NCBI GenBank assembly: GCA_964016885.1
Contig: OZ024749.1
Span: forward strand, 22,320,001 to 22,384,000
Reading direction: 5' to 3'
Length of the DNA: 64,000 bases
From: Eledone cirrhosa
Lineage: Eukaryota
Under the pieces are notes generated by a model that saw only the letters and a list, made by a program, of their open reading frames with translations, was not told the DNA's origin and ran no database searches. A program made the position numbers and the translations under genes. Below are positions 6,141 through 62,900 of this stretch, one piece after another (the stretch's first letter is position 1; every line of letters begins with the position of its first letter).

Positions 6141-9100
6141 TTACAGATATATACTCAGAGTAGGCCCATTCACTCGGGCCAGTCTTGCTTCTCTCACCCA
6201 TCTTTCAACAAAATGCCGGGAAGAGAGCACTTCCCTCTCTACTCTGATTTTCCTTTTCAAATGAAATTTGAAAAAGTCAATCAGAGCATCACCGAAGAGG
6301 TAAGTGCTCGTCTTCAGCCCTTTCAAACGTGTCCACCATATTATCTCTTTTGCCATGGCCACCAGACAGATAAAAACTGCCTGCCCTTCCCGGCTAAAGG
6401 AGGAGGGCGGGGCAATCCTCACGATGGACTCAGATGATAGCTGGTTCCGTCCTAAACGCGACAGCAGGTGTTCGACATAAACCCACAAGTCAGCAATTTT
6501 CGGACACTGGACGAGTGCGTGCAGGACGGTTTCGTCGCCCTGCGCGCATCTCGGACATTCCCGGCTGACGGCACCTCCATGCCTGTAGAGTTTATCCCGA
6601 ACTGGCAAGGCACCTCGGTAGCACTGCCAGGCCAGAGATTTCTGGAAGTTGTCCATAGGCCCTGGCCCGAAAGTTCTTCCGAAGAGATTGGCTAGTTGAT
6701 TTTCGTCGACGCCTAGAGTTTCCCCAAGTACGTCGTCGCTCTTCTCCTCCACTAATCCTCTATAGAACGCCGAGGTGGAGTTTCCACCGATCACATTGCC
6801 CGATTGGTCGAGGGCTGTGAGCGCCTGAAGACATTCCAGTCTCCAGGCGCTCCCTCTCGGTCTTCGCTTGACCCAGGACTGCAGCTCCGTCAAGGAAACG
6901 AGCTGGGGAAATACGTGTCTAGCAAACGGCGACCACACCTGATCACCGTCGAGGAAGAGGTGGAGATGTCGTAGCCTGACCGCGTGCCTGCGCATCATCA
7001 GCCACGGCATACCCAGCCCTCCACATAGCGGGTGTTGACAACAGATGGACCGCCTGACCATCGGAGCACGTCCCTTCCACAAAAAGCGAAAGAGCAAACG
7101 CTCCAGCGCAGTCAGGCGAGGCTTAGGACAAGGTACGACGGTCAGGCGGGAGCAGATGACAGACGCGATGTACGCGTTAGCCACCTCCGCTCGACCTTTC
7201 AGGGATAGCTTCCTCTCCGCCCATTTCTGGGTGAGAGAAGCCACCCTGCTCGTCACCTCGTCCCAGTTTTTGCCCGTCTGGAGGTCCGGACCGAACCAGA
7301 CCCCTAGCAATTTAACCGGTCCGTCCGTCCAGCGCCCGACGACGCTGTTGGACGGCATGGACCTGCCTCTCCAGGTGCAGAGCTGCAGGCCCACTGACTT
7401 TTCCTGGTTGATCATTGCTCCTGTCACCACTTCGTATTCTCTTAGTGTAGTGCCATCGCCTCGATGTGTTTGGCGTTCGACACCACGACGGTGACATCGT
7501 CAGCATATGCTGACACGGATCTTCCGCATCCTAGTTCGCGTGGGATGCCCCTCAACGTCTCCAGTTTGTGCAGTAATGGCTCGAGAGTCAATACGTACAA
7601 GAGGGACGAGAGGGGACATCCTTGGCGGACCGAGCGCATGATCTTGAACGGTTCCGACTGGTGACCGTTCACTCTCACCACAGAGCAGATGTCGCTGTGC
7701 ATGGCAGCGATCCAGCCTCTGAAGACGGGCCCAAAGCCAGCCGCCCTCAGGACTGCCGCTAGGTAACGATGGTCGACCCTATCGAAAGCTTTCGACTGAT
7801 CTAATTTGATCAAGGACCCACCCGTGCCAGGTTCCCTAGCTACCCTCTCTACGATGTATCGCATGAGGTGGAGGTTGTCGTGGATGGATCTGTCGGGAAT
7901 GGCGCATGTCTGCGCCTCTCCCACCAGACCACCAACGACAAGCGCCAACCTCTTTGCTAGCACCTTGGCCAAAATCTTGAACTCTGTGTTTAGCAGAGTT
8001 ATGGGCCTAAAATTATCTATGTTATCCCCCTTGTTCGGATCCTTTCTCAGCAGTGCCACCGCTCCTCGGCTCACAGAACTGGGAATTCTCCCGTTCTGTT
8101 GCCAGTTGCAGTGGACGTCCGCCAAGAGGCCTCCGAACAAGTCTGGCATCTGTACGTAAAGTTCATAGGGCAGACCATCCAAACCAGGCGATTTACCCCT
8201 TGTGCAGCCAGTCATTGCCTCCCTTACTTCAGCGGCTGTTATCGGCTTTTCGCAACACTTCGCCTCAGTGGCCGAGAGCCGCGGCAGTCCGTCGAGGTAG
8301 ACACTAAAGTCCATCCCTCTACCCGGCCCACCGCTGCCTCCGAACAGCTGAGCGAAGTGTCGCTGAAAAGCTTCACACATTTTCCCGGGATCGAGTAGCA
8401 TGCGCCCATCGTGGTCCACTAAAGACCGGATCGTGACTTTGTTGCCACGACGCGCCTCCGCCACTCGGGCCCATTGAACGGCTTTCGTCCCCTCGTGTCT
8501 GAGAGCACGCACCCTTGCTCTGACAACGCAGCCTTCGTGCTTTGCATTGAAGAATTGGTCAAGGGCCAATTTCGCCGCAAGCACGTCGGTCGCAATGCTT
8601 TTGTAAGCGCCTCGTCTAATTTTCTAACTAGTTCTCCCTCTGCTCTATTTTTCTCTATTGCTAAAGCCTTACTAAACCTAATGGATTCTATTCTAATCGC
8701 TCTTTTCAGAGCAAACCACCACTTGTTGTTGACGATGGCCCCCGTCAACGCCCGCTTAACTAGTTCGCTAATCCGGTCTCTGTAGGCCTTGCGCGCTGGT
8801 AAGGACGCGTTTAGCTTCCAGTAGCCGGATCCTCGTCTATGAAGCCTATCTAAGTCAAGCACACAGATCACGAATTTGTGGTCCGTGTAGCTGACTATCT
8901 TGAATTGTGGACAGCCTATGCTAGACCTATCTATTTCCCTACAAAATACTCTATCTAGATATGATCTGGATGACCCCATGCGATTTGTCCAAGTCCACAT
9001 TGGCACATTCGGGAAATCCAATCGGTACCTGTCAGACAGTTCAAAACGCCTGAGCAGGTTGGTGAGGCTCTTGCACCCTCCTCCCCTATCCGCTAATCCC

Positions 9101-9559
9101 ACACAGTCCCAGCGTGCATCTAAGATCCCGTTCCAGTCGCCCACTAACACTAAAGAGCCGGACGTTCCAAGAAAGGTCTCCAGACGCTGGAAGAAATCAG
9201 GCCGCCCTGCTCCTGTCGGGGCATAGACGGCCACTAGCCTGAAAGCTTGCCCGTCTCCGCTGGTCACGTCCAGCACCACCAACGTACCCTCTGGGTCCAG
9301 GAAGATGGCCCGTATGGCGAGATGCAAACCTCTCCGAAAAAGCACAGCAACTCCCCCCCCCCGATCCAGGACGGCTGGGAGATGCGTACACATCGTAGCC
9401 GCCGAAGATCGGTGCGAAGGCCCGTGCTTCGGAGATTCTGGTCTCGCTGATGGCCACTACATCTATGTTTAGTGACCTGAGGTCGTTGAGCAGGTGACCC
9501 TGCTTCCATGACGACCCCAAGCCACGCGCATTTATGCTGCCTATTCTGAGTGAGGTCAT
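6141..9559 (-). pseudogene. LINE ORF2: AP endonuclease, reverse transcriptase and C-terminal zinc finger, with three frameshifts
   Basis: SINARG..SETR, VYAP, GDWN, YLDR, TDH (APE); KSPGLDG, RPITLLN, DQSKAFDRVDH, QGCPLS, AYADD (RT); CPRC..ETVLHALVQC. Frameshifts near 9355, 8585 and 7445. Confidence 0.95.
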
Positions 9560-15761: not shown

Positions 15762-18700
15762 AAGTGGTGGAGAGGCGGTAAGAGTGTTAAGCTCGCACTC
15801 ATCTCCTCTCACCACCTCATTGAAAGACGTCGAAAATGTCGTCAGTTTTGAAAACACGATGTCGAACGTTGATTGTAACATCAACACTAACACAAACACC
15901 AATAACATGCAAAATATAACCAACACCACCAACAACAACAATAATGACAACAAAAACAACAAGAACAACAGCAACAATGATAACAACAACACCATCAACA
16001 ACAACAGCAACACGAACAACTCCACGAACAAGGAAAATATTTCCTTTGCCCAAACTGCGAAAAAAAACCTTGAATACCTGCCAGTAGACATAATCAACGC
16101 TAAGGAGCTACTGGTAGAAGCCAAAAAATACATAGTACACGGGGAAAATTGATCATTTTCGATACACTCCCCCCCCACCCCACACCCCGGAACTAAAAAG
16201 TCAGAGACTCCTAAACACAGTGATGTTTAGGACAGTGTTAAATAAAACGAAAAGACCAGCTCAACCATCACAGAGTGAGATAGAGCTGGTCTTAAAAGAT
16301 GTATTGAAAGACATTCTGTTCATACAAAAGGATAGACTCTATGGGAGTCTATCCATTCTCATGAAGGACCAGGACACGGCAAAAAAACTTTCGGTAAAAC
16401 CTATTACATCCACCGCATACAACTTCTACCCTACGTACATGAGTAGAAGGTTACAGAAAATAAAAATACACACCATTCTTCCAATTATAGACATATGGTG
16501 GATGTTAACAGGTTTTCTTGACCTGAACGATGACATATTAATATCCATGGGAAAGGCATCGGGTGACGCGTTCAGTGGAACGGGCCTCGAACTTTTAGTT
16601 CAAATGAGGCCCGAAAATATCGCCCAGATCCCTGAACGCGTCATACTGGATGACCAAATTTTATAAACATTACCGTTGAGGGTAGGCGGCCCTCGTGTTA
16701 CCTCTATGGAACCAGAGGTCACCTGAAGGCTGTCTGTCCTCAACTTAAAAATAAAATTCCAATTCTGCCCACACCACCAACAACTACACAACCAACACAA
16801 TCACCACCACCACCATTACAAAAACAACAACCACAAGTTAACACAAAACAAAACACTGTCCACCCCAATCCCCACACTAAAAAAACAATTTCCAAAACAC
16901 CCACACCGCAAACACTACCCGAAAATTTACCCCTCCCCTCCAAGACGGAAGACGACCCCCGTGCGTCGTCAGACGAGGGGGAGCATTTCCAAAAAGTTAA
17001 AAGAAAGAAAAGAAAACACCTCAGACACACAAATAAAAACAACCCCTCCCCAAAACATAACACAGACATCAACACAAAAGAACACACAACAACAGCAAAC
17101 AAAAAGCACCACACAAAAACAAAAATATGCATACACATACATAAACACAAGAAACAAAAAACTGTTACACATTATTTATAATAACAATGCTTTTTAGCAT
17201 AGTTACGTCCCTTTACAGTCTGAGTTCAAATCCCGTCGAGGTTAACTTTGCCTTTCATCCTTGTGGGGTCGATAAAATAAAGTACCAGTAATGTACTGGG
17301 TATTTGCTGGCCTTGTGCTAAAAGTAAAAACAATTATTTATAATAACAATTTGGTAAAATTCGAAGGGCCTAACTTCACCCAGGCAGGGGATTTCCCCCA
17401 CCTCAAAATGATAAAAGTCCCAGGGGACATATACAAAACTTTAAGGACAATTTTAAAGAGGACGTGAGCCCCCTGCTGATAGAACCCATAGACAGAGACC
17501 CGGTTACTGGAAACTGAACTTGTCCTTACCGGCAAGTAAAGTGTACAAAGACCGGATTAGTACTTTAGTTAAGGAGCGGTTGACGGGAGCGATCGTCAAT
17601 AGTTCAATAGTTGGTAGATAGTGTAGGGAGGCAATTAGAAGCGGCGACGGGGCCAAAATGCTAGCGTCGAGAACGGCCTTGGGCCAGTTCTTTGACGCGA
17701 AGCACGAAGGCTGCGTTGTCCGAAGCAAAATACGTGCTCTAGGAAACGAGGGGACCAAAGCTGTTAGCTGGACCCGCGTGACAGAAGCCAAAAGAGGAAT
17801 TAGATCCTCTATCCGGTCTTTGCGAGACCAGGATGGACGGGTGATCCTTGAACCTAAGCAGATGTGTGAGGCCTTTCAAAGGCACTTTACCCGATTGTTC
17901 GGGAGGGGAGGGGGGCCGGATTGGGATGTGGACTTCGGTCCATACCTCAACGGCCTGCCGCGTCTTTCGGACGAGGAGGCGAAGTCCTGCGAGGGGCCGA
18001 TTTCAGCTGCTGAGATAGGGGACGTGCTGAGCCGATGCGGCAAACGCAAATCCCGGGCTTCAATGGTCTTCCATACGAACTATATCTAGCTATGCCGGAC
18101 TTGTTCCCCGATCTCCTCGAGGCGGTCTACTGCAACTGGCTGGCAACATAACGGAAGAATTCCCTGTTCTGTGACCAAGGGCGTAGTCTCGCTAGTGAGG
18201 AAGGACGAGAACAAGGGGGACGAAATAAGTAATTTCTGCTAAATGCAGAGTTAAAATTTTGGAAAAGAGATTGGCGCTTGTCGTGGGCAACCTGGTGGGA
18301 GATGCGCAGACATGTGCTATCCCGTCCAGGTCCATCCACGACAACCTCCACCTTATGCGATACATTATAGAGAGGGTTGGGAACGAACCCGGCTTTGGTG
18401 GGGCCCTGATCAACTTGGATCAATCTAGGGCGTTCGATAGGGTCGACCATGGTTACCTGGATGCGGTGCTAGCGGCGGTAGATTTCGGACCCGTTTTCAG
18501 GGGCTGGATCACAACAGTCGCATCTGCTCTAGAGTCAAGGTGAACGGCTACCACTCGGAGCCGTTCGAAATCACGCGGTCCATCCGACAAGGGCGCCCGC
18601 TCTCCTCCCTTCTGTATGTATTGGCCCTCGAGCCACTGCTGCAGAAGTTGGAGTTGTTGCAGGGCATCCCGTTGGAACCGGGATTGCGGAAAGCGGTGTC

Positions 18701-20300
18701 GGCCTACGCCGATGACGTAACAGTAATGGTGTCGACCGCTTCGCAAATCAGGGCGATCGGCACCTTACTGGAGGAGTATGAAAGGTTTACAGGGGCTAAC
18801 CCGAACCGGTACAAGTCGATCGGGTTGCAACTCGGCACGTGGAGGGGAAAATCGATGCCCTCCTATTGCGTCGTCGTCGGCCGGTGAAGTTGCTCGGGGT
18901 CTGGTTCGGACCAGACCTCCAGGTGGAGAAGAACTGTGGTGGGTAACGAACTGGGTGTTTGCACTAACCCAGAAGTGGGCCGAGTGCAAACTATTCCTGA
19001 AAGGTCGGGCGGAGGTGGCGAACACTTATATAGTGTCCGTCATCTACTACCGCCTGACCGTCGTGCCTTGCCCAAGGGAAACGCTCACTAAAATGGAGCG
19101 CGCACTCTTCCAATTCCTTTGGAAGAAGCGGGCCCCTTTGGTGGGGAGATCCATCTGCTGTCAACACTCTTCGAAAGGAGGGCTGGGGATGCCTTGGCTG
19201 CTGATGTGTAAACACGCATTATGGCTACGGCACCTCCAGGTATTCCTCACCGGTCAACCGCTGTGAGCCCCGTTTGTGAGACGAACCTTTCCGAGACTCG
19301 TCTCACTCACCGAGCTGCAATCCTGGGTCAAGCAAAGACCGAGAAAACTGGGCGCCTGGCACACCGAGTGTGCCCAGGCGCTCACGGCTCTCTGGCAGGC
19401 GGACCCGACTATCAGTGGTGAATCCACCTCGACAATCTATAGAAGGCTGGTACGCAGCAGGTGAGACGACGCTCTCGGCGAAGCCCTAGGCATGGAGGAA
19501 GACGAACTGGCCAGCCTGTTCGGTAGGACATTTATCCCGGGACCCATGGACAACTTCCAGAGGTCCCTGGACTGGCACTGCTACCGAGGGGCTCTGCCCC
19601 TTCGAGAAAAGCTCTACAGACCCGGTTTCCTGGGTAAGGACCCCTCGAAAAAGATTGTCCCAGATGCGTGCGCGACGAGGAAACCGTCGCGCATGCATTG
19701 GTAAACTGCCCGGGCGTCGCCGATCTGTGGGGCTATGTCGAACGACTGCTGTCACGGGTGGGACCTATCCGGTTGACCACCGAGTCCATTATAACGATCA
19801 AGCCGCCTCGCCACTTCAAAAATGAAGGAGAGGAGGTGTTTCTGTGCGTAATAGCCATGGTGAAAGAGGCTGTATGGTGGACGCGTTTGAAAGGACTGAG
19901 GTCAGACACCTTTCTCTCTGGCCAACAACTGGTCCTTTTCTTCCGATATCATTTCGGAAGAAGGATCAGGATGGAGAGAGAGGTGCTCCACCCCAGCCAG
20001 TTTTATGATGATGGGTGAAAGTGGCGAGAATGGCCCGTGTGAATGGGCCTTCTCTCTATATCAGCCTGTAGGTGAAAAAGATGGAAGAACAAGGGAGCAC
20101 CCTCTCTCTGCGCTCCTGAGGAGAAGGGTTGCACACTTTTTCGGGGGGGTGTGCGACCCCAAAAACGCCTCCTCCCTATTGAGGACTTTATTGTTAATTT
20201 TATATTTGTTATTTGTTTTTTTACTCGTTCTTTTGTGTAAACTCCCCCCTTTGTATTTGTCCCCTTCTTTTGCGCCCTCGTGGCAATAAATAGAAACATA
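15762..20300 (+). mobile_element. Decayed Tx1/L1-clade LINE with the APE region deleted
   Basis: ORF1 remnants (N-rich, ISFAQTAKK); RT fragments (DQSRAFDRVDH, AYADD) homologous to the 5880-11925 element; AATAAA at the 3' end; (CTAT)n flanks. Confidence 0.9.
17189..17335 (+). mobile_element. 5'-truncated SINE family A inserted in the LINE, with 18 bp target site duplication
   Basis: attatttataataacaat at both 17171-17188 and 17333-17350. Confidence 0.85.
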
Positions 20301-20359: not shown

Positions 20360-20391
<32 letters not shown>

Positions 20392-20393
<2 letters not shown>

Positions 20394-20540
20394 CGAAGGA
20401 GTTGTGGTAAGGAACCAGATGGACCATAACGCACCCGAGTACTCAATACTTAGGGTAGTAGGTGGGTAATAGGAAAATGTATGACCCCGACGGCGGAGCT
20501 CAAACCCCGTTCGACGGCTATTTCTGGACTAGTCCAGATG
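20392..20540 (-). mobile_element. PLE-type end family (also 57470-57664, 60266-60340, 61001-61205)
   Basis: Shared gtattgagtac..tatggtccatctggttccttaccaca..cgtt end abutting (TA)n; carries the 3' half of a hammerhead. Confidence 0.75.
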
Positions 20541-20768: not shown

Positions 20769-20773
<5 letters not shown>

Positions 20774-21687
20774 AAAAGTTATGAAACGAAAGGAGCTGTG
20801 TGGTTACTAAAAACAAGGTTTAGGATGGTGGTTAGGACGGAACAGGAGGAGAGAGGAAGAAAGGAGTTTTCATCGTCAGCTGTAAATGTATCCCGAACCG
20901 ATGTTTCGGCGCTGAATTACAGGACATCGGTGTAGTTTGGGTGCGCCCGAGGCCTTTTATTAATCAAAAGGCCAGGTGGAAAAAGAGAGAGAAAAAGATA
21001 GAACAAAAGGAGAGAGAAAAGGAAAGAGAGGGAAAGGAGGAAAAACAGGGGGAAAAGATGAGGAGAGAGGGAGAGGGGGAAAAATAGGAAAGGAATGGAA
21101 GAAAAAAAGTGTACAGGTCCCATCATGGGAAGACACAGGTGAAAGAAACATGCAAAAAAGTAACCGTGGAAAAATAGGGAAAGTAAGTTGTGGCCAACCT
21201 GGGAGACTTTAGCCTGGTGGTCAGCTACGACTCAGAGCTGGTATAATCGTGCTGCCTCTCGTATAGACAGGAGAAAGTGAGAGAGACACACGGCCAGCCA
21301 AAAGGGAGGAGAAGGGAAAGGGAGATAATCCAGAAGGTTTTTTTTACGACGGTGGTAAAAACGTGCCGTAAAGATTGCGGGTAGAGAGGCCACCACGGCA
21401 CATGTAAACATGTCAACAATCAAAACCGAACGGATGGATAGAGAGAGAGAGGGAGAGAGAATAAAAACAAGAGTGAGGAGAGGGAAGAGAGAGGGGAGGG
21501 TCGATGCGAAAGTGTGGAGGGTACAAAGATCGACCAAAGCAGGTAGGGTCACGGCGGTAAATACAAAAAGTTATGAAACGAAAGGAGCTGTGTGGTTACT
21601 AAAAACAAGGTTTAGGATGGTGGTTAGGACGGAACAGGGGGAGAAAGGAAGAAAGGAGTTTCCATCGTCAGCTGTAAATGTATCCCG
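20769..21687 (-). mobile_element. Non-coding, terminally redundant retrozyme-like element, 792 bp unit
   Basis: About 127 bp direct repeats at 20769-20895 and 21561-21687, microsatellite flanks, no credible ORF. Confidence 0.75.
20868..20941 (-). ncRNA. Non-circularly permuted hammerhead ribozyme candidate
   Basis: ACCGAUGU-C-CUGUAA-UUCAGCGCC-GAA-ACAUCGGU-linker-UUACAG-CUGACGA. Perfect 8 bp stem III and 6 bp stem I, GUC triplet. Confidence 0.7.
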
Positions 21688-27149: not shown

Positions 27150-27232
27150 TATTGGGTCGTCAAGTATGAAATTTGTAGAAATTTGTTGAAAAGAAACAAA
27201 TTTCTACAAATTCCATACTTGACAACCCAATA
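27150..27232. repeat. Inverted repeat, 38 bp arms with a 7 nt spacer
   Basis: tattgggtcgtcaagtatgaaatttgtagaaatttgtt / aacaaatttctacaaattccatacttgacaacccaata. Confidence 0.85.
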
Positions 27233-34797: not shown

Positions 34798-34838
34798 CAG
34801 TCCTGATGAAGGGTAATGACCCAGAAACATGTTGATTG
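34798..34838 (+). ncRNA. Minimal type I hammerhead ribozyme
   Basis: CAGTC-CTGATGA-A-GGGT(AATG)ACCC-A-GAAA-CATG-TT-GATTG, with palindromic stem III AACATGTT. Confidence 0.85.
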
Positions 34839-34900: not shown

Positions 34901-34976
34901 ATCGGACACATTTGGTTCCAAACGAATCGAAGATTATCATTAATGTTCGATATAGCCCATACGTACATATGTGTAC

Positions 34977-35026
<50 letters not shown>

Positions 35027-35102
35027 GTACACATATGTACGTATGGGCTATATCGAACATTAATGATAATCTTCGATTCGTTTGGAACCAAATGTGTCCG
35101 AT
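34901..35102. repeat. Perfect palindrome: 77 bp arms around a (TA)n centre
   Basis: 34901-34977 is the reverse complement of 35026-35102. Confidence 0.95.
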
Positions 35103-35107
35103 ATATA

Positions 35108-35280
35108 GTTTTAATATAGATGAGATTCTACAGGACTAGAACTGTTTCATTCTTTAGAAATCATCAAAGAATGAAACAGTTCTAGTCCTGTAGAATCTCA
35201 TCTATATTAAAACTTTTATACTCTGCAATGTATTGAGTACCTTACTTACTGTGGTTACCTCCGATTCAACCCGGAACAAC

Positions 35281-36202: not shown

Positions 36203-36270
36203 GTATTTTATCTGATGAGGACGTACTGAGGAAACAACACAGTCCCTCCGAAATATATATACTAAAATAT
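36203..36270 (+). ncRNA. Type I hammerhead ribozyme motif
   Basis: GTATTTTAT-CTGATGA-GGA..ACTG/CAGT..TCC-GAAA-TATATA-TA-CTAAAATAT. Confidence 0.65.
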
Positions 36271-42544: not shown

Positions 42545-45112
42545 TATTCTATTCTAAGGCGTGTAAAATTCCCGAGATCCATGGACGAGTTCTCTCCAGC
42601 GGTCTCAGTCCCCCATTATCGCTGCCATATCCTGTGTCTCAAACAGACCAGTGTCTGTCCTTAGGGCATCAACATATGTTAACCTTGGTCTTCCGCTTCT
42701 AGTGTGTCCATGTAGGGGCTCCCAAATGAGCACTGAATGCAATGTCAACTGTGGATGTCGGTGAGTATGTCCAGCTAACCTCAGTCTCCTCTGTGTCACT
42801 TTTGAGCTGACTTTTGGGACGCTCCCATACAGCTCTGAGTTTTTCATCCTCAGTGTATACTGATTAATGTTCACAGCCATCCTCAGCATTCTCGTGTAGC
42901 ACCCATCCACCATCTGAGTGAGTTTATTGGTCAGTGTTCAAGTCTCAGACCCATACAGCAGCACAGACTCCACTACAGCAATGAAGAGGCGGATTTTCAG
43001 GTCTCTACGAAGGTCCAACTTCCACACCGATCTCAAGCTGTGGCACGCCGCCCAGGCCTTGCTCTTCCCCTCAACCACATCATCTTCCGTATTCCCAATC
43101 TTTGCTCCCAAATACAGGAAGCCCTCAACCAATTCTAGCGGCTTCCCGCCTACATTAGTGATCCCCTCTGGCTTCTCAACATTCTCTACCAGATATTTTG
43201 TTTTAGTCTCATTCATTCTCAGCCCCACACTCATCGACACAGTCTCAACCTCCCGCATCAAATCCTCTGCCTCCCTCACTGTATTTGTCACCAAAACTAT
43301 GTCGTCGGCAAATTCAGCATTCGATACTTTTTTCGCCCTAACTCTCCTGCTCTGAGCCGGTGCTACAGTAAAGCCAGAGTCCTGGTGTTTCTCCAGTGCA
43401 AGGCGCATACAATAGTCCACTACGATGATAAAAAGGTAGGGAGCCAATGTATCTCCCTGGAGCACTCCAGCTAGTATCTCAAAGAACTCTATCATCCCAT
43501 CAGGTGTAATGACTTGGGCTTTGGTGTTGGTGTAGAGCAGTGATATCAGATCCACTCTCTTCTTGGGGATTCCATAAGCCTGTAAGATCTTCATCAGGCA
43601 GTAACGGTCCACAGAATCAAAGGCCTTCCTAAAGTCAATGAAAACCATGACCGCGGGAAGGCACTTTGCTCTAGCTCCCTCTAATATCCTCCTCAGCATC
43701 AGGATGTGACTGGTGGTTGATCTAGCCTCTCTGAAGCCGTTCTGGTTGTCCCTGAGCTTCTTCTCCATCTCAGGCTGGATCCTGTTAAGAATTATCCTGT
43801 TGAGGGTCTTTGCCACAAGTGACGTCAGTGAGATCCCCCTGTAGTTGTTGGTGTTAGAGATCTCTCCCTTCTTTGACACTGGGACGATGTTACTGATCCT
43901 CCACTGATTCGGGGCAACTCCTTTCTCCAGTGCCCGATTACAGAACCCCAGGATGATATAATCAAAATCACACCTCTTCATCACCTCTGATGCCACTCCA
44001 TCTTCTCCATGAACCTTGCCGTCCTTGATCCACTTCTTGGCTCTCTGAAGCTCCTCTCTGGTGAAGGGCTCTGTCTCAACATCCAGTTCCTCAAACAGTC
44101 GCCTGATCTCCCCAGTGCTCTGGGCTGTGGAGGGTGGCCCTCCTAGTAGGGTCCTAAAATGGTCTAGCCATTTCCTCTTCCTATCCTCGGGCCCCGTTAC
44201 CTGGATCTGACTCGAACACCTTCTCTTCCTCCCTGTGATCTCGTTGATGATCATCCAGCTCTCCTTACATCCAGATCTGTCAACCGCTCTCTCCACACAG
44301 GATATTGTGTGCCTGAGTGGTGTTGACAGCTCTACACACCTCCTCATGGAACTCTTCCGCACTCACATCACTGTCCCCCTTGGTTGGACTATAGGCTGAG
44401 ATGACTGTCAGTCTTGGGTTTCCATTGAAGGTCACCATCAACACTCGCGGGGAGATAGGCATTATTTCCCTCACCAATAGATTGGTTTTTGCACTGAACA
44501 CAAAACCCACTCCTCCTACTGCAGCATTTGTTGTGTTCTTCACTGCCGATGTAGTGATGAGCTGGCTGTTCTTCCCGATCATCACACTCCTCACGGGCTC
44601 ATCGTGTAGGATCCTGTATTCTTGGATCGCAAGTTTCTGTATACCCCTCTCCTCGAACAGATGTCCCAACTCCTCTCTCTTCTCCAGCGTCCGAATAGTC
44701 CTCACATTCAAAGTGCCCATTTTGATGGCTCTTCTGTAGGACAAAACTGTATTCTTTATATTTGTCTCTGAGACAGCTGATCCATCATCCACTGGCCCTC
44801 TCTGTGGCTCTACGTCAGCAGAGTCATAACGACCAGGCTGCTCCTTGACAGTGTAATTAGGAGCTCTAACCCTAGTGCTGTTAGATCGACTCTCCATATT
44901 TCTTTTCAATGGCTGACAATACCTTACCGGCGCCACTCGAATAAGGTAGTTATTTAACCCATAAATGGAGCCCTAACAAGTACTACCACCCCGGGCCAGG
45001 GCAGACCTGGGAGTCATGACAACTAAGGGGTAACTCCACATTCCCCACAACTCCTGAACTCCCGAACTGGAGCCTTGCCACTGGTTGTAGTTTAATGTCA
45101 TACTCAGGACAA
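42545..45112 (-). mobile_element. RTE-clade LINE, internally deleted and disrupted
   Basis: APE N-terminal half (GTLNVRT, AIQE, GGVG, SAYSPT); RT (YRGISL, QNGFR, DFRKAFD, GVLQGD, EFADD); RRLRLAGH..GRPR; (AATAG)n tail. Confidence 0.92.
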
Positions 45113-46518: not shown

Positions 46519-46519
<1 letters not shown>

Positions 46520-47340
46520 AAAAATTTACGAAATGGAAATGCGGGTATATAGAATTTATTAGGTAACAATTGTTTCTATAGTGTATGAGTTACCTATACC
46601 TCGCTACTTGAATAATACACAAATATTATCAAAAACCGAAAGTACACTGTAAGCCAACACACCATGTCATCAGACCTTTGTATTAGAATGATATGAAAAT
46701 ATTTTATACACTAGATAAAAGATAAAGAAGGAGGTAGGAAGAGAAGGGGAAGAGGGAAGTGAGTAAGGTGGAGGGAGTCTTAGGGTTTAAGACTGTCAGA
46801 TTTGTAGAGATTGTGAAGAGAGCATGTTTTGGCAGCAGTTAGCTTAATGAGGCATGCTAAGGTTGGCTGGGAAGTAGATTCTTCTAGTGGTGTTGTTCGG
46901 ACAAAATTTAGTTAGAGGGGTCAAAGTAGTACAGTGTCACAGACAAGTTATTAGGGCTATTATAGTAGCAGGTTATTTCTAAATGGGTCCAGAAAAACAG
47001 TGTTTAGTACTATTATTATCTTTTATCTAGTGTATAAAATATTTTCATATCATTCTAATACAAAGGTCTGATGACATGGTGTGTTGGCTTACAGTGTACT
47101 TTCGGTTTTTGATAATATTTGTGTATTATTCAAGTAGCGAGGTATAGATAACTCATACACTATAGAAACAATTGTTACCTAATAAATTCTATATACCCGC
47201 ATTTCCATTTCGTAAATTTTTTCTCCATATTTTCTCCGGATTTTAAAACACACTTTATTATACGTTGAGCAATCTCTGACGTCAGTTGACTCCATCCAAT
47301 GCAACTACTTAGTAACATTGGAATACAAATTAACTAATTC
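46519..47340. mobile_element. PLE-type end with about 207 bp near-perfect inverted arms, each holding a hammerhead
   Basis: Arms 46519-46725 and 47016-47222. HHR AGGT-CTGATGA-long stem II-GAAA-CAATTG-TT-ACCT at 47064-47180 (+) and 46561-46677 (-). Confidence 0.85.
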
Positions 47341-47604: not shown

Positions 47605-48619
47605 TATCGCCTAATCACTACCATATATATATATATATACACACACATATCTATGATAAACGATCGAGACTATTGGCACCGATACAACTTTCATTGCAGT
47701 AAAAATAACACATCACCACTGCATAACACACCACCACTACACCATTACACCACTACACCACTACACCACTATACCACTACCTACACACATCTGTTGCTGT
47801 TGGTGATGCTGGTAGTGGAGGTGGTGGTGTTGGTAGTGGAGGTTGTGGTGGTGGCATTGGAGGTGGTGGTGGTGGTACTGGAGGTGGTGGTGGTGGTACT
47901 GGAGGTGGTGGTGTCGGTATTGAGTGTGGCGGTGATGGTATTGGAGGTGGCGGTGGTGGTACTGGAGGTGGCGGTGGTGGTGTTGGAGGTGGCGGTGGTG
48001 GTACTGGAGGTGGTGGTCGTGGTGGTACTGGAGGTGGCGGTGTCAGTACTGGAGGTGGTGGTGGTGGTGGTACTGGAGGTGTTGGTGTCAGTACTGGAAG
48101 TGGTGTTGGTGTTTTTGCTACTGGAGGAGGTGGGGGGGCAGTGGTGTTGGTACTGATGGTGGAGGTGGTGGTGTTGTAGGTAAATACAATTTTGTCACTG
48201 ACATCGTTAATACAGATGAATAGAGTGTAATTAGATATAATTACGTTTATTTACATTGATTCCTGTGGTGGGGTGGGGTGGGGTGGAATATTGGTGGTGG
48301 GTGTGGTGGGGTGGGTATGAGGGGGATGTTTGGTGGTGGTGTGATGGTGTTTGGTAGGGGGGGTATTGGTGGTGTGGTGGGGTAGGAGGGAGTATTGGTA
48401 GTGGGGTGTTGGTGGGGCTGTTGTGGCGGTGTGGTGGTGGTGTGGTGGTGTGGTGGTGTAGTGGTGGGGCGGTCGTGTGGTGGTGGGGCGGTGGTGTGGT
48501 GGCGGTAGGGCTGTTAGTGATGGTAGTGATGGTCTAGGTGATGGTGGTGGTGGGGTAAGCAGCGTCTGTAGGGGACACATCATGCTCTATAGTACATATA
48601 ATAGTTATGGTAGTAGTTT

Positions 48620-49243
48620 GTAGGTGGTGGGGTGATGGTGACGGTGTTGGAGATGTTGATGGTCTTATACTAGTAGTGGTGGTGGTGGTGGTGGCGGTGG
48701 CTGTGGTGGTGGTGGTGACGGTGTTGGAGATGTCGATGGTGTTATACTAGTAGTGGTGGTGGTGGTGGTGGCGGTGGCTGTGGTGGTGGTGGTGACGGTG
48801 TTGGAGATGTCGATGGTGTTATACTAGTACTGGTGGTGGTGGTGGTGGCGGTGGCTGTGGTGGTGGTGGTGGCGGTGGTGACGGTGTTGGAGATGTCGAT
48901 GGTGTTATACTAGTAGTGGTGGTGGTGGTGGTGGCGGTGGCTGTGGTGGTGGTGGTGACGGTGTTGGAGATGTCGATGGTGTTATACTAGTACTGGTGGT
49001 GGTGGTGGTGGCGGTGGCTGTGGTGGTGGTGGTGGCGGTGGTGACGGTGTTGGAGATGTCGATGGTGTTATACTAGTAGTGGTGGTGGTGGTGGTGGCGG
49101 TGGCTGTGGTGGTGGTGGTGACGGTGTTGGAGATGTCGATGGTGTTATACTAGTACTGGTGGTGGTAGTGGTGGCGGTGGCTGTGGTGGTGGTGGTGGCG
49201 GTGGTGACGGTGTTGGAGATGTCGATGGTGTTATACTAGTAGT
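48620..49243. repeat. Minisatellite, about 54-66 bp unit
   Basis: Recurring ggtgacggtgttggagatgtcgatggtgttatactagtagtgg. Confidence 0.95.
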
Positions 49244-51212: not shown

Positions 51213-51979
51213 AACAATATATAAAATATATATATAAACAATATATAATATATATAAACAATATGTAATATATATAATATATATAATATATAATATATAT
51301 ATATATATATAATATATAATATATATATATAAATGATAATATAAATAATATATATAATATATATATATAATATATATATATAAATGAAAGGAAATAAGTT
51401 AATAGCAAGTTGTAGTGTTGTACTATACCCGTCACCCCCACCCCACCCCCACCCCACCCCCACCCCACCCCCACCCACCCCCACCATCACTAGCACCACT
51501 AGCACCACTAGCAGCAGCGCCACCACCACCACCACCACCACCACCACCACAACCACCACCTAACCAACCACAAGCACCACCACCAGCAGCAGCGCCACCA
51601 CCACCACCAGCACCAGCACCACCACCACCAACAGCAATAACACCACTAACCTGCATCACCGCCACCTCCACCACCATGTCTAAACCTCTACCACCACCAC
51701 CACGACTAAACTCCAGCATTACTATCACCAGCACCTCCACCGCCACAACAGTCAACCATCATCACCACTAACATCACCAACACCACCAACAAAACAGTCA
51801 CCGCCATCATTTCAATCACCAACATCACTAAACCTACCACAAACACCACTACCATCACAACCACCATCACAACCACCACCAACACACAGAACCACCACAC
51901 TCACCACCTTTCCCTCCACCATCATCACAATCACCGACAGCACCAACATCACCATACCGACCTCCACAACCACAACCAC

Positions 51980-52940
51980 ACCCACCACAATCACCACCAC
52001 CACTACCACCTTCACCACCATCACCAACACCACAACCACCAACGGCCCCACCATACTATCTTCACCGCCACCATCACCAACACCACAATCACCACCGCCA
52101 CCACCACTACCACCTTCACCACCACCATCACCAACACCACAACCACCAACGGCCCCACCACTACTATCTTCACCGCCACCATCACCAACACTACAATCAC
52201 CACAGCCGCCACCACTACCACCTTCACCACCACCATCACCAACACCACAACCACCAACGGCCCCACCACTACTATCTTCACCGCCACCATCACCAACACC
52301 ACAATCACCACCGCCACCACCACTACCACCTTCACCACCACCATCACCAACACCACAACCACCAACGGCCCCACCACTACTATCTTCACCGCCACCATCA
52401 CCAACACTACAATCACCACAGCCGCCACCACTACCACCTTCACCACCACCATCACCAACACCACAACCACCAACGGCCCCACCACTACTATCTTCACCGC
52501 CACCATCACCAACACCAGAATCACCAACGCCGCCACCACTACCACCTTCACCGCCACCATCACCAACACCACAATCACCAACGCCGCCACGACTATTACC
52601 TTCACCACCACCATCACCAACACCACAACCACCAACGGCCCCACCACTACTAGCTTCACCGCCACCATCACCAACACCACAATCACCACCACCACCACTA
52701 CCACCTTCACCGCCACCATCACCAACACCACAATCACCACCACCACCACCACCACTACCACCTTCACCGCCACCATCACCAACACCACAATCACCACCAC
52801 CACCACCACTACCACCTTCACCGCCACCATCACCAACACCACAACCACCAACGCCGCCACCACTACCAGCTTCACCACCACCTTCACCAACACCACAACC
52901 ACCAACGCCGCCACCACTACCACCTTCACCCCCACCCCCC
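51980..52940. repeat. C/A-rich minisatellite, about 60/120 bp higher-order unit
   Basis: Recurring cttcaccgccaccatcaccaacaccacaa. Confidence 0.9.
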
Positions 52941-53673
52941 ACCAACATTACAATCACAACCACCACCACAGCCACTTAACCCCCCCCCCACCAAAGACAG
53001 CTATCCTCCCACTCCACCGACGTAAAAAAATAAATATGTAGTAAATTAATATAAATGAAGGGTGGAAGGAGGGAAAGTACGAGGGAAGGCAGGCGGGCGG
53101 AAGGAGGGATGATACGGGGAGGTAGGAGGTAGGAGGGAGGAGGAGGGAGGAAGGAGGTACGATGTACCATAGGTAAATGACAATAAGAGTTGTCGGGTAA
53201 ACAGAGGAAAATTTGCAACGTTGATTGCATAGTCAAAGCTACCATTGTAAGCAATATATATATACATAAAAACACACACATTTACATACACACACACACG
53301 CACACATACACACAGACGCACACACACACATATATATATAAATACATATATATATGTGTACATATATATATACATACATAAATACACACATTTATACATA
53401 CACACATACACACACACATATATATATTCATACATACATACATATATACATACATACAAACATATACATATATATGAGTAAATATATACATACATATATA
53501 TGTGTGTACGTGTGTGTGTGTATATATATATTTATATATATTTACATATATATATATATATGTATGTATAAGCATATATATATATGTATACATATATTTA
53601 TATGCTTATACATACATATATATATAAATATATATGTAAATATATATAAATATATATATATATATATACACAC

Positions 53674-54400: not shown

Positions 54401-54815
54401 AGTGAGTAAATAAAATGCAGGAAATAGAAGAAGAACAATAATAGACTGAAACCAAATTAGAAGAGGGGAATTAACTCAGAGGCGAACATGGAACTCTACA
54501 CTATATATGCAGAATATGTGTATCTTTGTGTGTGTGTGTGTGTGTGATAATGTATGTATGCGGATTCATATGTAAGTGCGAGTGTATTTATGTATGTATG
54601 TATGTATCTATATCAGTGTATGCATGTATACATGTATGTGTATATGTATGTCTGTCTGTATCTATGTATATATGTATGTATGTGTATATGTATGCACGTA
54701 TTTATGTATGTATGTATTTATGTATGTATGTATGTATGTATGTATATATGTATGTACGTGTGTGTCTGTGTGCAAATGTATATAGTGCATGTTATATATA
54801 TATATATATATATAT

Positions 54816-54978
54816 ATATGAATAAAGTTAGTCCTTCATCAGTGATCTTCCAACCATCATTGGTATTTCATCGCTTTAAAGCGATGAAATACCAATGATG
54901 GTTGGAAGATCACTGATGAAGGACTAACTTTATTCATATGTAACCCATTAGCAACCACGCAGCACGTTTATTCTCATA
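54816..54978 (+). mobile_element. Fold-back copy of the permuted-hammerhead element end; 124 bp perfect palindrome (54816-54939)
   Basis: Centre ttt|aaa at 54877/54878; the right arm aligns to the minus strand of 55005-55096. Confidence 0.85.
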
Positions 54979-54990
54979 TATATATATATA

Positions 54991-55987
54991 TGTAAATATG
55001 ATAATAAAGGAACTGCGGCGTTGCAAATGGGATACATATGAAAAAGTGAGTCCTTCATCAGTGACTCTCCAACCGTCCTAGGCATTTCATCGCTTTAAGG
55101 GCCATATGCCTCAGGTTGGTGCGAACAACGGCTAACAAAAGTCGTTGGGACACGTAAACACAGGGGACGCCAGGGTAACAACAAAAAAGTTTAAGCAACG
55201 GAAAGTGAGAAGAAATAGACAAGTCCCAGATCTCTATGGATATAAACTCGGTGAAATCTTGAACAAGAGACAAAAGACCATCAAACCTGGTTGAAATGTG
55301 AGCAAGGAAAGAATTTCGCCCAAGTTTGACGGGGGGGGGGGAAAAGAGAGATAGAAAGGAGAGAAGAAGAAGAAGAAGAAGAAGAAGAAGAAGAAGAAGA
55401 AGAAGAAGAAGAAGAAGAAGAAGATAAAGGGGTCTGGTCTACGAATTCGGTAAACGTAAGTTTTGTGAAGTCGCAGACGAAAGAGAGAGAGAAAAAAAAT
55501 TCCATACCAGCTTGGTCAAGACCGCGCGAGAAAAGAATTACACACAGGTCAAACTTGAAGGAGGAGGAGGAAAGAGGAGGAGGAGAGGTAGTGACAGAGA
55601 ATGAGTGAGTGAAAGTTGAGGAGGAGGCTAACAGAGAGAGAGACTGCTAGAAAGGGTAAAGATACAAGGAACGAAACAGACGAGGCAGCATGGAAAAAAT
55701 ATATGTGTAAATATGATAATAATGAAGCTGCGGCGTTGCAAATGGGATACATATGAAAAAGTGAGTCCTTCATCAGTGACCCTCCAACCGTCCTAGGCAT
55801 TTCATCGCTTTAGGGGCCATATGCCTCAGGTTGGTGCGAACAACGGCTAAAAAAAGTCGTTGGGACACGTAGACAAAGGGGACGCCAGGGTAACAACAAA
55901 AAAGTTTAAGCAACGGAAAGTGAGAATAAATAGACAAGTCCCAGATCTCTATGAATATAAACTCGGTAAAATCTTGAACAAGAGACA
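54991..55987 (-). mobile_element. Non-coding, terminally redundant retrozyme-like element, 715 bp unit, with two permuted hammerheads
   Basis: About 282 bp direct repeats at 54991-55272 and 55706-55987; ribozyme motifs at 55050-55119 and 55765-55834. Confidence 0.8.
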
Positions 55988-56027
55988 TATACATATATAT
56001 GTGAAGTTTTGCATACATTATACATAC

Positions 56028-56640
56028 ATATGTGAAAAAATGGGGAGAAGAATACTGCAGGTTGCACATAGATAACATGTAATAAAATGAGTCCCTCATC
56101 AGTCATTTGCCGACGATCATAGATATTTCATTGCATTAAAAATCATATACCTCACGTCGGAGCAATAATAATTAAATTAAGTTATTAGGACAATTAAAAC
56201 GCGTAAAGCGAGTGAGACAAGATAACAACAAAGAGGAGAGCTAACCGTAGAGAGGAAGGGAACAAGCTACATAGTTATACTGTTAGCATAAGCTAGGTGA
56301 ATATATGAGCGCTTAGAAAAAAGACCTTTCGAGTTGAATCCAAATGTGAGAAAGAGAGAAAATGTTTTCGTCGCGAACGGGGTGAAGTGAGAAGGGGAGA
56401 AACAGTTAGTGAGTGAGTGGAAGTGTGAGGAAGAGTTAACTGACATGACAGAGGGGGCGAAGGAAGAGTTAACTGACATGACAGAGGGAGCGAAAGAAAG
56501 TAGGAGAAACAGAGAGAACGAGGGAGCAGTAAGAGAGAGAGTGAGAAAAAAAACAGAATCGCAGTTTAGGTAAATATATGTGAAAAAATGGGGAGAAGAA
56601 TACTGCAGGTTGCACATGGATAACATGTAATAAAATGAGT
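56028..56640 (-). mobile_element. Diverged relative, 548 bp unit, with permuted hammerhead at 56091-56160
   Basis: 65 bp direct repeats at 56028-56092 and 56576-56640. Confidence 0.75.
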
Positions 56641-56647
56641 ATACCTA

Positions 56648-56736
<89 letters not shown>

Positions 56737-57453: not shown

Positions 57454-57805
57454 TGTATATATATATATATAACGAAGGAGTTGTGGTAAGGAACTAGATG
57501 GACCATAACGCAACAAAGTACTCAATACTTAGGGTAGTAGAGTGGGTAATAGGAAAAAGTATGACCCCAACAGCAGAACTCAAGCCGTTTCGACGGCTAT
57601 TTCTGTCCAGAAATAGCCGTCGAAATGGCTTGAGCCCTGCCATCGGGGTCATACTTTTTCCTATGTATATATATATAAACGGAAAAAATTAAACGAAATT
57701 TCATTTCCTACTCTTAGTACGGCTGTTACTTAAATATATGTATACAGACGTACAGTAGTATGTATATATATATACATACATGCACACATATATATATATA
57801 TGTAC

Positions 57806-58120
57806 GTATGGATTCACAAAATATTTATTATAATGCTCGGTGTGTTTGTAAACAAACATCCCGTATTAAGCCACTCGATATGCAAATTGGGCTACTCAGC
57901 CGTTAATATGCATGAGGAAAGTATATACTTTCAGACGTTCAAAAATCTGTCAGGAAGGTATACGTTGCTGACGATAGCTAACAAGCTTGAAACTAGTACA
58001 GCATTCCTTTGTCAGTGTTGAACAAACGAGCAACGGCGGTTGCCAGACACTATGGCTCAATACGGGATGTTTGTTTACAAACACATCGAGCATTATAATA
58101 AATGTTCGGTGAATCCATAC

Positions 58121-58125
<5 letters not shown>
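57806..58125 (+). mobile_element. PLE-type end with 68 bp inverted arms and an intact minimal hammerhead (57955-58009)
   Basis: GTTG-CTGACGA-T-AGCT(AACA)AGCT-T-GAAA-CTAG-TA-CAGC; arms 57806-57873 and 58053-58120. Confidence 0.85.
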
Positions 58126-58151
<26 letters not shown>

Positions 58152-60973: not shown

Positions 60974-61204
60974 CATATATATATATACATATATATATAT
61001 ATAGGAACGAGTAGGACCCCGACGGCTGAGCTCAAGCCGTTTCGACGGCAATTCTGCATTAAAATTAGTCCAGAATTAGCCGTCGAAACGGCTTGAGCTC
61101 AGCCGTCGGGGTCCGACTCGTTCCTATTACCCACTCTACTACCCTAAGTATTGAGTACTTTGGTGCGTTATGGTCCACCTGGTTCCTTACCACATTTCCT
61201 CCGT

Positions 61205-61235
<31 letters not shown>

Positions 61236-61662: not shown

Positions 61663-62261
61663 TGCACACATACACAGACACACATATATACACACACACA
61701 TATATATGTATATAAATATATACACACACATATATATATATGTATGTATATATATATGTACAAAATAATCATTGATATACATAAACATATATATATATAT
61801 GTATATATACATATATAGTTAAAAGAATAGAGGTGTAACACACAAGTTATTATATATTGGTAAACGGAATAGAAAATGCTGACAAATTGTTCACAGTTGA
61901 AAAATAGTTTAATTAGGAATAAAAGAGTATTAGTGATTGTATGGGTTAGTATTCAGTTGTGGTTTTAAGTTTTTAAGTTTTTACCGGTTGCGCATTTCTA
62001 AATGCTTTTCAAAAATAATTTTGAGATAGAGTGTCCGTGCTGTTTGCTCTGATCTGATTAGTTTTGGGAATTCTACCTGTTTTTATGTTAAAAAAGTGGC
62101 TCCAATTTGCAAAAATTCTTGTGGTCAAAACAATTTTGATTGGTCGGTAGAGGTCATGTGAATAAAAAATTGGTTTATGTTGGTTCTATACCAACACCTC
62201 AGTATGCAGGCTGGAGCACTCGACGAAGTGCGCAGGTTGGTTTGGTTACTCCGGAGTAATG

Positions 62262-62853
62262 TATAATAAAGTTAAATAAAAAGTCAAATGTTTAAAATTT
62301 AGCTTCGTTTCTTACTGCTATATATATTTCAGTGACGGCCATCTTTGGCTGTGACCTCTTCAGGCAGTTTGAATTAGTTAACATAGCAAATACAAACACT
62401 ACAGGGAGCCTCACCCCAGAAAGAATTCTATAGACTTCTGACTGAGGAATGCGCTCAGAACTGACCAATGGGAAGTTTGACACCTTTTTGTTATTTTGTT
62501 CCTTTAACACCTTGTCCCCTCTACCATTTTATCAATTTTATCAACAATAACAACACTTAGAATGAGAAATGTTCTAATAACTGACCAATGAGACGAGAAG
62601 AGGCCCTTTGACACTGAAATTCGTTTGTTTGAATTCATATGATTCCAGTTCCTCAGTGAAATAACAACCCAACCAGGAACTGAGCATATCAGAGTATTGA
62701 CAATATTATATACCTAAACAACATATGTACTTGTCTATATCATACTAATTCAATCTGCCTGAAGAGGTCACAGCCAAAGATGGCTGTCACTGAAATATAT
62801 ATAGTAGTAATAAACGAAGCTAAATTTTAAACATTTGACTTTTTATTTAACTT

Positions 62854-62860
<7 letters not shown>
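62262..62860. mobile_element. PLE-type inverted pair of about 117 bp arms, each with an intact hammerhead
   Basis: CTGC-CTGAAGA-GGTCACAGCC(AAAGAT)GGCTGTCACT-GAAA-TATATA-TA-GYAG at 62755-62807 (+) and 62314-62368 (-). Confidence 0.88.

Positions 62861-62900
<40 letters not shown>

Follow-up and report, generated by a model that had tools for sequence, protein, structure and literature searches.

The window analysed here is a stretch of 64,000 nt from Eledone cirrhosa (GCA_964016885.1, contig OZ024749.1, positions 22,320,001-22,384,000, forward strand) that consists of eukaryotic DNA rich in microsatellites, and all coordinates below refer to it. An exact scan located a palindrome at 54816-54939, with two arms of 62 bp, a spacer of 0 and its centre TTT|AAA at 54877|54878. 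The arms match at 62/62 bases, in agreement with the perfect, spacerless 124-bp palindrome of the preliminary description, and as RNA they would form one hairpin (-108.2 kcal/mol, z = -25), with 0/200 shuffles equally stable. The left, short arm (54816-54877, minus strand), delimited by the exact scan and by comparison with related copies, is the inverted 3' part of an element and runs from position +9, counted from a predicted ribozyme cut, to the first of two CATAT boxes, without a tail. The right arm (54878-54939, plus strand) contains the left-arm sequence again, with GAAA at 54886-54889, CUGAUGA at 54913-54919 and no cleavage site. Only this arm carries a 40-nt tail (54940-54979, plus strand), which lies between the two CATAT boxes and is identified from the sequence and from the tails of Penelope-like elements (PLEs) as described in PMC8557442 and PMC11167929. 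The sequence on both sides of the insert is a (TA)n target, at 54793-54819 on the left and at 54976-54991 on the right, where it is common to the 3' end of the neighbouring copy A. The left arm thus halts at the first CATAT box and is followed by (TA)n, and the right arm continues for another 40 nt before (TA)n is reached; the same 40-nt spacing of the CATAT boxes is found in the palindrome, copy A and copy B. Palindrome tail and copy A meet tail-to-tail within a single short (TA)n tract and together make up an 83%-complementary inverted repeat (54876-55098) that could yield double-stranded RNA.

Several related units lie on the minus strand next to the palindrome. Copy A (54984-55698) is a unit of 715 nt with no Pfam-matching ORF, and copy B (55699-55987) is its upstream partial-tandem partner, 96% identical to it, with an intact motif, H17 at 55820 and a 5' junction at -167. 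Copy C (56028-56575) is a diverged unit of 548 nt with compensatory changes, H17 at 56146 and one G.G mismatch in stem I, and is accompanied by the partial-tandem partner copy D (56576-56640), whose 5' junction is at +54. A second family, which has no sequence match to the A/B/C family, is represented by copy E (20771-21562, minus strand), a unit of 792 nt, and its partial-tandem partner E' (21563-21687, minus strand), with a 5' junction at +28. The S-G-C families, named after the block order described below, thus form three partial tandems in the window: A-B (715 + 289 nt), C-D (548 + 65) and E-E' (792 + 125).

The right arm of the palindrome can be aligned to copy A from 55096, to copy B from 55811 and to copy C from 56137 (minus strand), with identities of 84% (over 101 nt), 84% and 73%, respectively. 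Relative to the predicted H17 of copy A (55105) the arm starts at +9, and eight post-cut bases are absent, which places the turn where it had been put before, about 8 nt 3' of the predicted cut. Neither arm contains the leader, the stem III strand or the cleavage triplet, which confirms that the right arm corresponds to the 3' portion of a permuted hammerhead family and lacks everything upstream of the cut. As the insert has no cleavage site and forms a perfect hairpin, its ribozyme is predicted to be dead. The junction itself falls on a short self-complementary TTTAAA (54875-54880), and since TT|AA is already present at the matching place in copy A (+7 to +10), it can be placed only to within a few bases.

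None of the six ORFs near the A/B/C family has a Pfam match, and among the 14 ORFs (of 100 listed) that were tested against Pfam, none encodes a GIY-YIG domain or a PLE reverse transcriptase (RT). Matches were obtained for 4/14 tested ORFs, all to LINE-type or generic RT domains (RVT_1, zf-RVT, Exo_endo_phos). RT ORFs lie at 6141-9456, 18441-18887 and 42938-44362, and the element at 6.1-9.5 kb has AP-endonuclease, RT and zf-RVT domains, each in a separate one of three frames. We rejected the RT ORFs at 6.1-9.5, 18.4 and 42.9 kb as the parent ORF of the families, their domains being LINE-type or generic RT. The family copies are probably non-autonomous elements or 3' fragments.

A motif scan of the window for all six orders of the core blocks S, G and C identified four intact copies (A, B, C and E) in which the core CUGAnGA, GAAA and UH stand in the order S, G, C; S-G-C matches inside the palindrome are a by-product of its mirrored arms and were left out of this count. 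Core nucleotides (H17, A9, 10.1, 11.1) are numbered here by the conventional hammerhead scheme. In copy A the candidate motif spans 55055-55125 (minus strand), with the leader at 55125-55121, H17 at 55105, GAAA at 55088 and CUGAUGA at 55061, and the corresponding positions in copy E are 20947, 20923, 20907 and, for a CUGACGA core, 20879. In all four copies a leader, situated ~20 nt 5' of the cut, pairs with the 5 nt preceding GAAA, forming 4, 4, 5 and 5 Watson-Crick pairs, and in 4/4 copies the strand right after CUGAnGA forms at most the first pair of stem II and no pair run. Sixty shuffled windows contained a mean of 0.017 S-G-C matches and none with a leader helix, although CUGAnGA cores were also less frequent in them (19.7 vs 43 in the real window). 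Copies A and B have U.U at position 11.1, leaving the first leader pair unformed, and copy E combines a leader helix of 5 bp with fully Watson-Crick stems I and III. Short alternative helices between the free sides of stems I and II were also seen by eye. We infer a model in which the hammerhead chain would have its opening between A9 and position 10.1 and would receive the 10.x strand from the 5' leader. The region of copy E at 20771-21687 (minus strand) offers the best candidate motif for in vitro work.

The block order S-G-C excludes a canonical type I, II or III hammerhead. Among non-circular orders it corresponds to type-SGC (PMC10085705), of which examples come from metatranscriptomes; according to the available part of that study, none was found in the genome of any known organism, save for one bacterial GCS candidate. 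The window families resemble type-SGC, including HRIMA-1, in the full core order S, G, C, in the pseudoknotted stems I and III, for which covariation is also found in copies A-C (three sequences), and in the short linker that joins the stem I strand to the 3' strand of stem II (PMC10085705). In contrast to type-SGC, where the strand that directly follows CUGAnGA completes stem II (PMC10085705), the window families would use the 5' leader for this, and their stem III has a second helix. The published stem II was therefore rejected for them, as the strand after CUGAnGA forms no pair run in 4/4 copies. The family motif is probably a new topological variant of the hammerhead, for which we propose the non-circular order leader-S-G-C and which remains a candidate defined by its sequence.

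In an alignment of copies A, B and C, 94.2% of the cells pair and double-sided changes occur in 7/23 pairs, a comparison of three sequences, two of them 96% identical, with the structure drawn from the same sequences. These changes are spread over all four helices (one in the leader helix, two in the stem III extension, one in the 6 pairs of stem III and three in the 6 pairs of stem I). None of 500 shuffles reached the A/B/C values for pairing and covariation, and slid controls paired at 29-44%. Nested minimum free energy folding, to which pseudoknots are invisible, recovered the stem III extension alone (z = -0.6 to -1.4 for A-C, +0.6 for E) and placed CUGAUGA inside a competing hairpin. This hairpin suits the alternative that the motif is not an active ribozyme in the leader topology, either serving as a conserved RNA signal such as an RT-binding fold, or having a minimal 1-bp stem II with the leader helix as a separate, perhaps inhibitory, pseudoknot. 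The minimal stem would have an A10.1-U11.1 pair available in A and B and a G.U pair in C, and the published three-block scheme allows up to 1-2 nt between CUGAnGA and the stems (PMC10085705). We nevertheless regard this alternative as unlikely: the core nucleotides are all invariant in copies A-C, and in copy E as well as in eight places of Naiad elements read by eye, the base following CUGAnGA does not allow a pair with C11.1, while a G-C pair is available from the leader.

Rfam at gathering gave 0 matches over the whole window, in a scan that was insensitive and also missed type I motifs elsewhere in it. Among 43 sub-threshold matches in 54700-56700 there was no hammerhead; the best were to miRNA models, which score any long hairpin, and a miRNA precursor was rejected. 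The type I hammerhead-like motifs unseen by Rfam at gathering lie at 1328-1406, 36212-36260, 47068-47176, 57968-57998 and 62759-62801, mostly with a short palindromic stem III and some with a long stem II.

A connection to known elements is offered by Naiads, a group of PLEs characterised by an N-terminal GIY-YIG, a CxC linker and a C-terminal RT and reported to be without canonical hammerheads, with some families tagged HHR_core or HHR_half_core and no fold proposed in the available part of PMC8557442. We read the Naiad consensuses (PMC8557442 File S5, n = 54) by eye via motif searches that covered three of four core variants at 60/62, 23/23 and 30/43 places, two GAAA contexts at 30/47 places and one whole part, and the resulting counts are lower bounds, as line breaks in the consensus file hide further cases and two partly fitting places (parts 25 and 26) are uncounted. 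The leader-S-G-C layout was found in at least 8/54 consensuses, each with a G-C pair as the first leader pair: three from Acropora, two from Octopus, Naiad_EuTe, one probably from Morbakka and one probably from Beroe, the last with a stem I of just 2 bp. These eight consensuses represent five independent lineages. At least six places in nematode Naiad 3' UTRs (File S5 parts 13-16) look like type-CSG on inspection by eye, with pairing in each of the three stems; this type was previously known from two sequences, both from metagenomes (PMC10085705). It is fairly likely that Naiads carry non-circularly permuted candidate hammerheads, with type-CSG in nematodes and an undescribed leader topology from ctenophores to octopus.

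The window families share with Naiads (PMC8557442) the lack of a canonical hammerhead, the preference for (TA)n targets, the tail, the combination of inverted and tandem structure, and the leader-S-G-C layout. They differ from Naiads in having no Naiad ORF in the window and no sequence match; four family motifs of 9-10 nt had no match in Naiad 3' UTRs and only unrelated matches in the available Naiad supplement (PMC8557442). Because no PLE ORF is found in the window, it is the RNA layout and the insertion anatomy, and these two only, from which the families would be assigned to Naiad, and their predicted ribozyme is likely the one missing from these elements. By titles and abstract openings, in a search with most subscription journals outside its scope, no report tying permuted hammerheads to Naiads or to animal genomes was found, the available parts of PMC10085705, PMC8557442, PMC13725137 and bioRxiv 10.64898/2026.07.22.740005 included.

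The palindrome is an already described kind of PLE structure. Insertions of PLEs contain an inverted 5'-truncated copy, a 30-40-bp tail that is often present at one end only, and partial tandems (PMC8557442), and palindromes are abundant at their head-to-head junctions, where they were ascribed to self-priming, with no ribozyme invoked in the available text (PMC3846280). Of the features of endonuclease-encoding (EN+) PLEs, the palindrome has the inverted 5'-truncated head-to-head copy and the one-end tail of 30-40 nt (40 nt, 54940-54979), and the window families have the (TA)n target and the partial tandems, while an ORF with PLE RT and GIY-YIG is absent from the six nearby ORFs and the 14/100 listed ORFs tested. 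Head-to-head arms, junction palindrome, one-end tail, AT-rich target and partial tandems are all shared with published EN+ PLE insertions (PMC3846280, PMC8557442, PMC11167929). The differences are that the insert consists of the inverted pair alone (62 + 102 nt) with no attached ORF, and that a predicted ribozyme cut is located 8 nt 5' of the junction. Taken together, this anatomy makes it likely that the palindrome arose by head-to-head insertion of a PLE 3' end, probably of a non-autonomous or truncated Naiad-type element, into (TA)n.

From the observed anatomy, pairings and covariation we infer the enzyme, the priming, the joining and any cleavage as follows. A PLE endonuclease would cut both strands of (TA)n, and reverse transcription would start at the two CATAT boxes, whose spacing is 40 nt, generating one tailed and one tailless arm. 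Both cDNAs may have stopped close to the TTAA site, which lies 8 nt 3' of the ribozyme cut, and their self-complementary TTAA ends may have served to join them; alternatively, fold-back of a single cDNA at this site would give an identical product. The sequence itself fits either route, and we lean towards two joined cDNAs since the short arm ends at the tail boundary, which fits the two RT start sites seen in vitro. In those experiments, a PLE protein cut and extended both target strands and two internal RT start sites defined the tail, insertion did not require ribozyme cleavage, and the main substrate of the anole PLE was unprocessed RNA (PMC11167929). The layout of a short and a long arm recurs twice in another family (57549-57664 and 61003-61215), with arms that are 88% and 96% identical.

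Within this explanation by PLE insertion, the position of the junction may have either of two causes. As a special case, the template could have been the 3' product of ribozyme cleavage, with the cDNA running off its 5' end, losing a few bases and self-priming or annealing at the nearest self-complementary site, so that the junction would mark cleavage in vivo; we consider this a tentative reading, with somewhat less than an even chance. The junction lies at +9, or closer given the microhomology, and the observed position is precisely the one expected if a cleaved template were joined at the closest microhomology. Stem I complementarity predicts the bases +1 to +8 of the donor, and if +8 was a T, as is usual in the family, the donor would have had a native palindrome of 6-8 nt, which would leave only 4-5 post-cut bases unaccounted for. 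The chance of one junction falling in a 10-nt window is ~0.045, but this is a single event chosen post hoc. Among the truncation junctions of the S-G-C families (+9, +28, +54 and -167), 1/4 lies in +1 to +10 (p ~0.17, uniform model), copies A, B, C and E run through intact cut sites, a fold-back stem of 2-3 bp is in our judgement weak, and the preference for unprocessed RNA in vitro also argues against a cleaved template.

A survey within the window comprised, besides these junctions, ten inverted structures, the palindrome included. Four of the ten have kept the cut, as called, in both arms (1217-1466, 46519-47222, 62259-62863 and, provisionally, 61003-61135), which also speaks against the cleaved template, although structures other than the palindrome belong to canonical or unassigned families with the cut near the 3' end and are weak evidence for the palindrome family. 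In one further structure (57775-58151) the spacer contains a complete type I hammerhead, and another four (1558-1671, 27150-27232, 35107-35214 and 57549-57664) were left out as they gave no reliable cut call. The earlier explanation, a cDNA that reached the 5' end of a cleaved RNA and self-primed, therefore holds as far as the origin by reverse transcription is concerned, whereas cleavage and fold-back are unproven in view of the native TTAA site, the p value of ~0.17 and the intact cut sites of copies A, B, C and E.

Microhomology alone could equally have set the position, with a randomly truncated cDNA of uncleaved RNA turning at the native TTAA/TTTAAA in the ribozyme linker, a possibility to which we give a little under half of the weight. 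The centre does lie on a native self-complementary site, and such sites (at least 4 nt) occur at 9/227 positions of copy A; only about one of the nine lies 10 nt or less from the cut, which gives the coincidence that microhomology alone demands odds of ~1 in 9. A family at 57.6 and 61.0 kb turns in an apparent native hairpin 5' of its putative cut, and three of its insertions share roughly one end point, in line with a junction set by microhomology, with the limit that the cut assignment in this family is provisional, as no CUGAnGA was seen. The three insertions (20385-20531, 57465-57665 and 61003-61215), two of which are inverted with a short and a long arm, have their 5' ends at this apparent hairpin, and the family contains GAAA, a stem III-like hairpin and GUC, without CUGAnGA. 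An assembly or library artefact (fold-back chimera) is very improbable: the palindrome is known here from assembled sequence alone, its arms are identical at 62/62 positions and PLE inverted structures are known to trouble assemblies (PMC8557442), but the mirroring ends exactly at the internal tail boundary of the element, the flanks are unrelated, and the same layout occurs elsewhere in the window with diverged arms (88% and 96%).

By itself the palindrome adds little, such junctions being a described PLE feature, and the greater weight falls on the ribozyme. Were it active, animal genomes would be shown to contain non-circularly permuted hammerheads, the known topologies would be extended beyond the three-block scheme in print, and there would be an explanation for the failure of descriptor searches to find hammerheads in Naiads, a clade that reaches tens of thousands of copies in certain genomes. 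The predicted cut lies ~105 nt from the 3' end of the family and 5' of both core halves, and a cleaved template would thus give a cDNA of recognisable length. Genome-wide junction positions could serve to test if cleaved RNA is a template of PLE reverse transcriptases in vivo, going beyond the in vitro work of PMC11167929. That Naiads carry the permuted hammerheads and that the palindrome is also a genomic record of in vivo cleavage is, as a joint statement, rather doubtful.

The units in the window also resemble animal non-LTR retrozymes (bioRxiv 10.64898/2026.07.22.740005), being non-coding, ribozyme-bearing and tandem-like and related to PLE ends. Non-LTR retrozymes are described as non-coding tandem units, at least two of them with a complete ribozyme, that have a type I hammerhead in each repeat and a circular RNA intermediate. 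The type I hammerhead is absent from the window families, whose units of 548-792 nt carry the rearranged motif in S-G-C order and are present in 1.1-1.4 copies. Tandem A-B has two complete motifs in 1.4 units, and C-D and E-E' have one each.

Other structures in the window include a perfect palindrome of 202 bp (34901-35102), centred on (TA)n, apparently tail-to-tail and located downstream of a CUGAUGA at 34803, with an adjoining inverted repeat of 49 bp with a 10-nt spacer (35107-35214). Large G-rich and C-rich tandem arrays are found at 47798-49216 and 51429-52975, in inverted orientation and ~65% alike.
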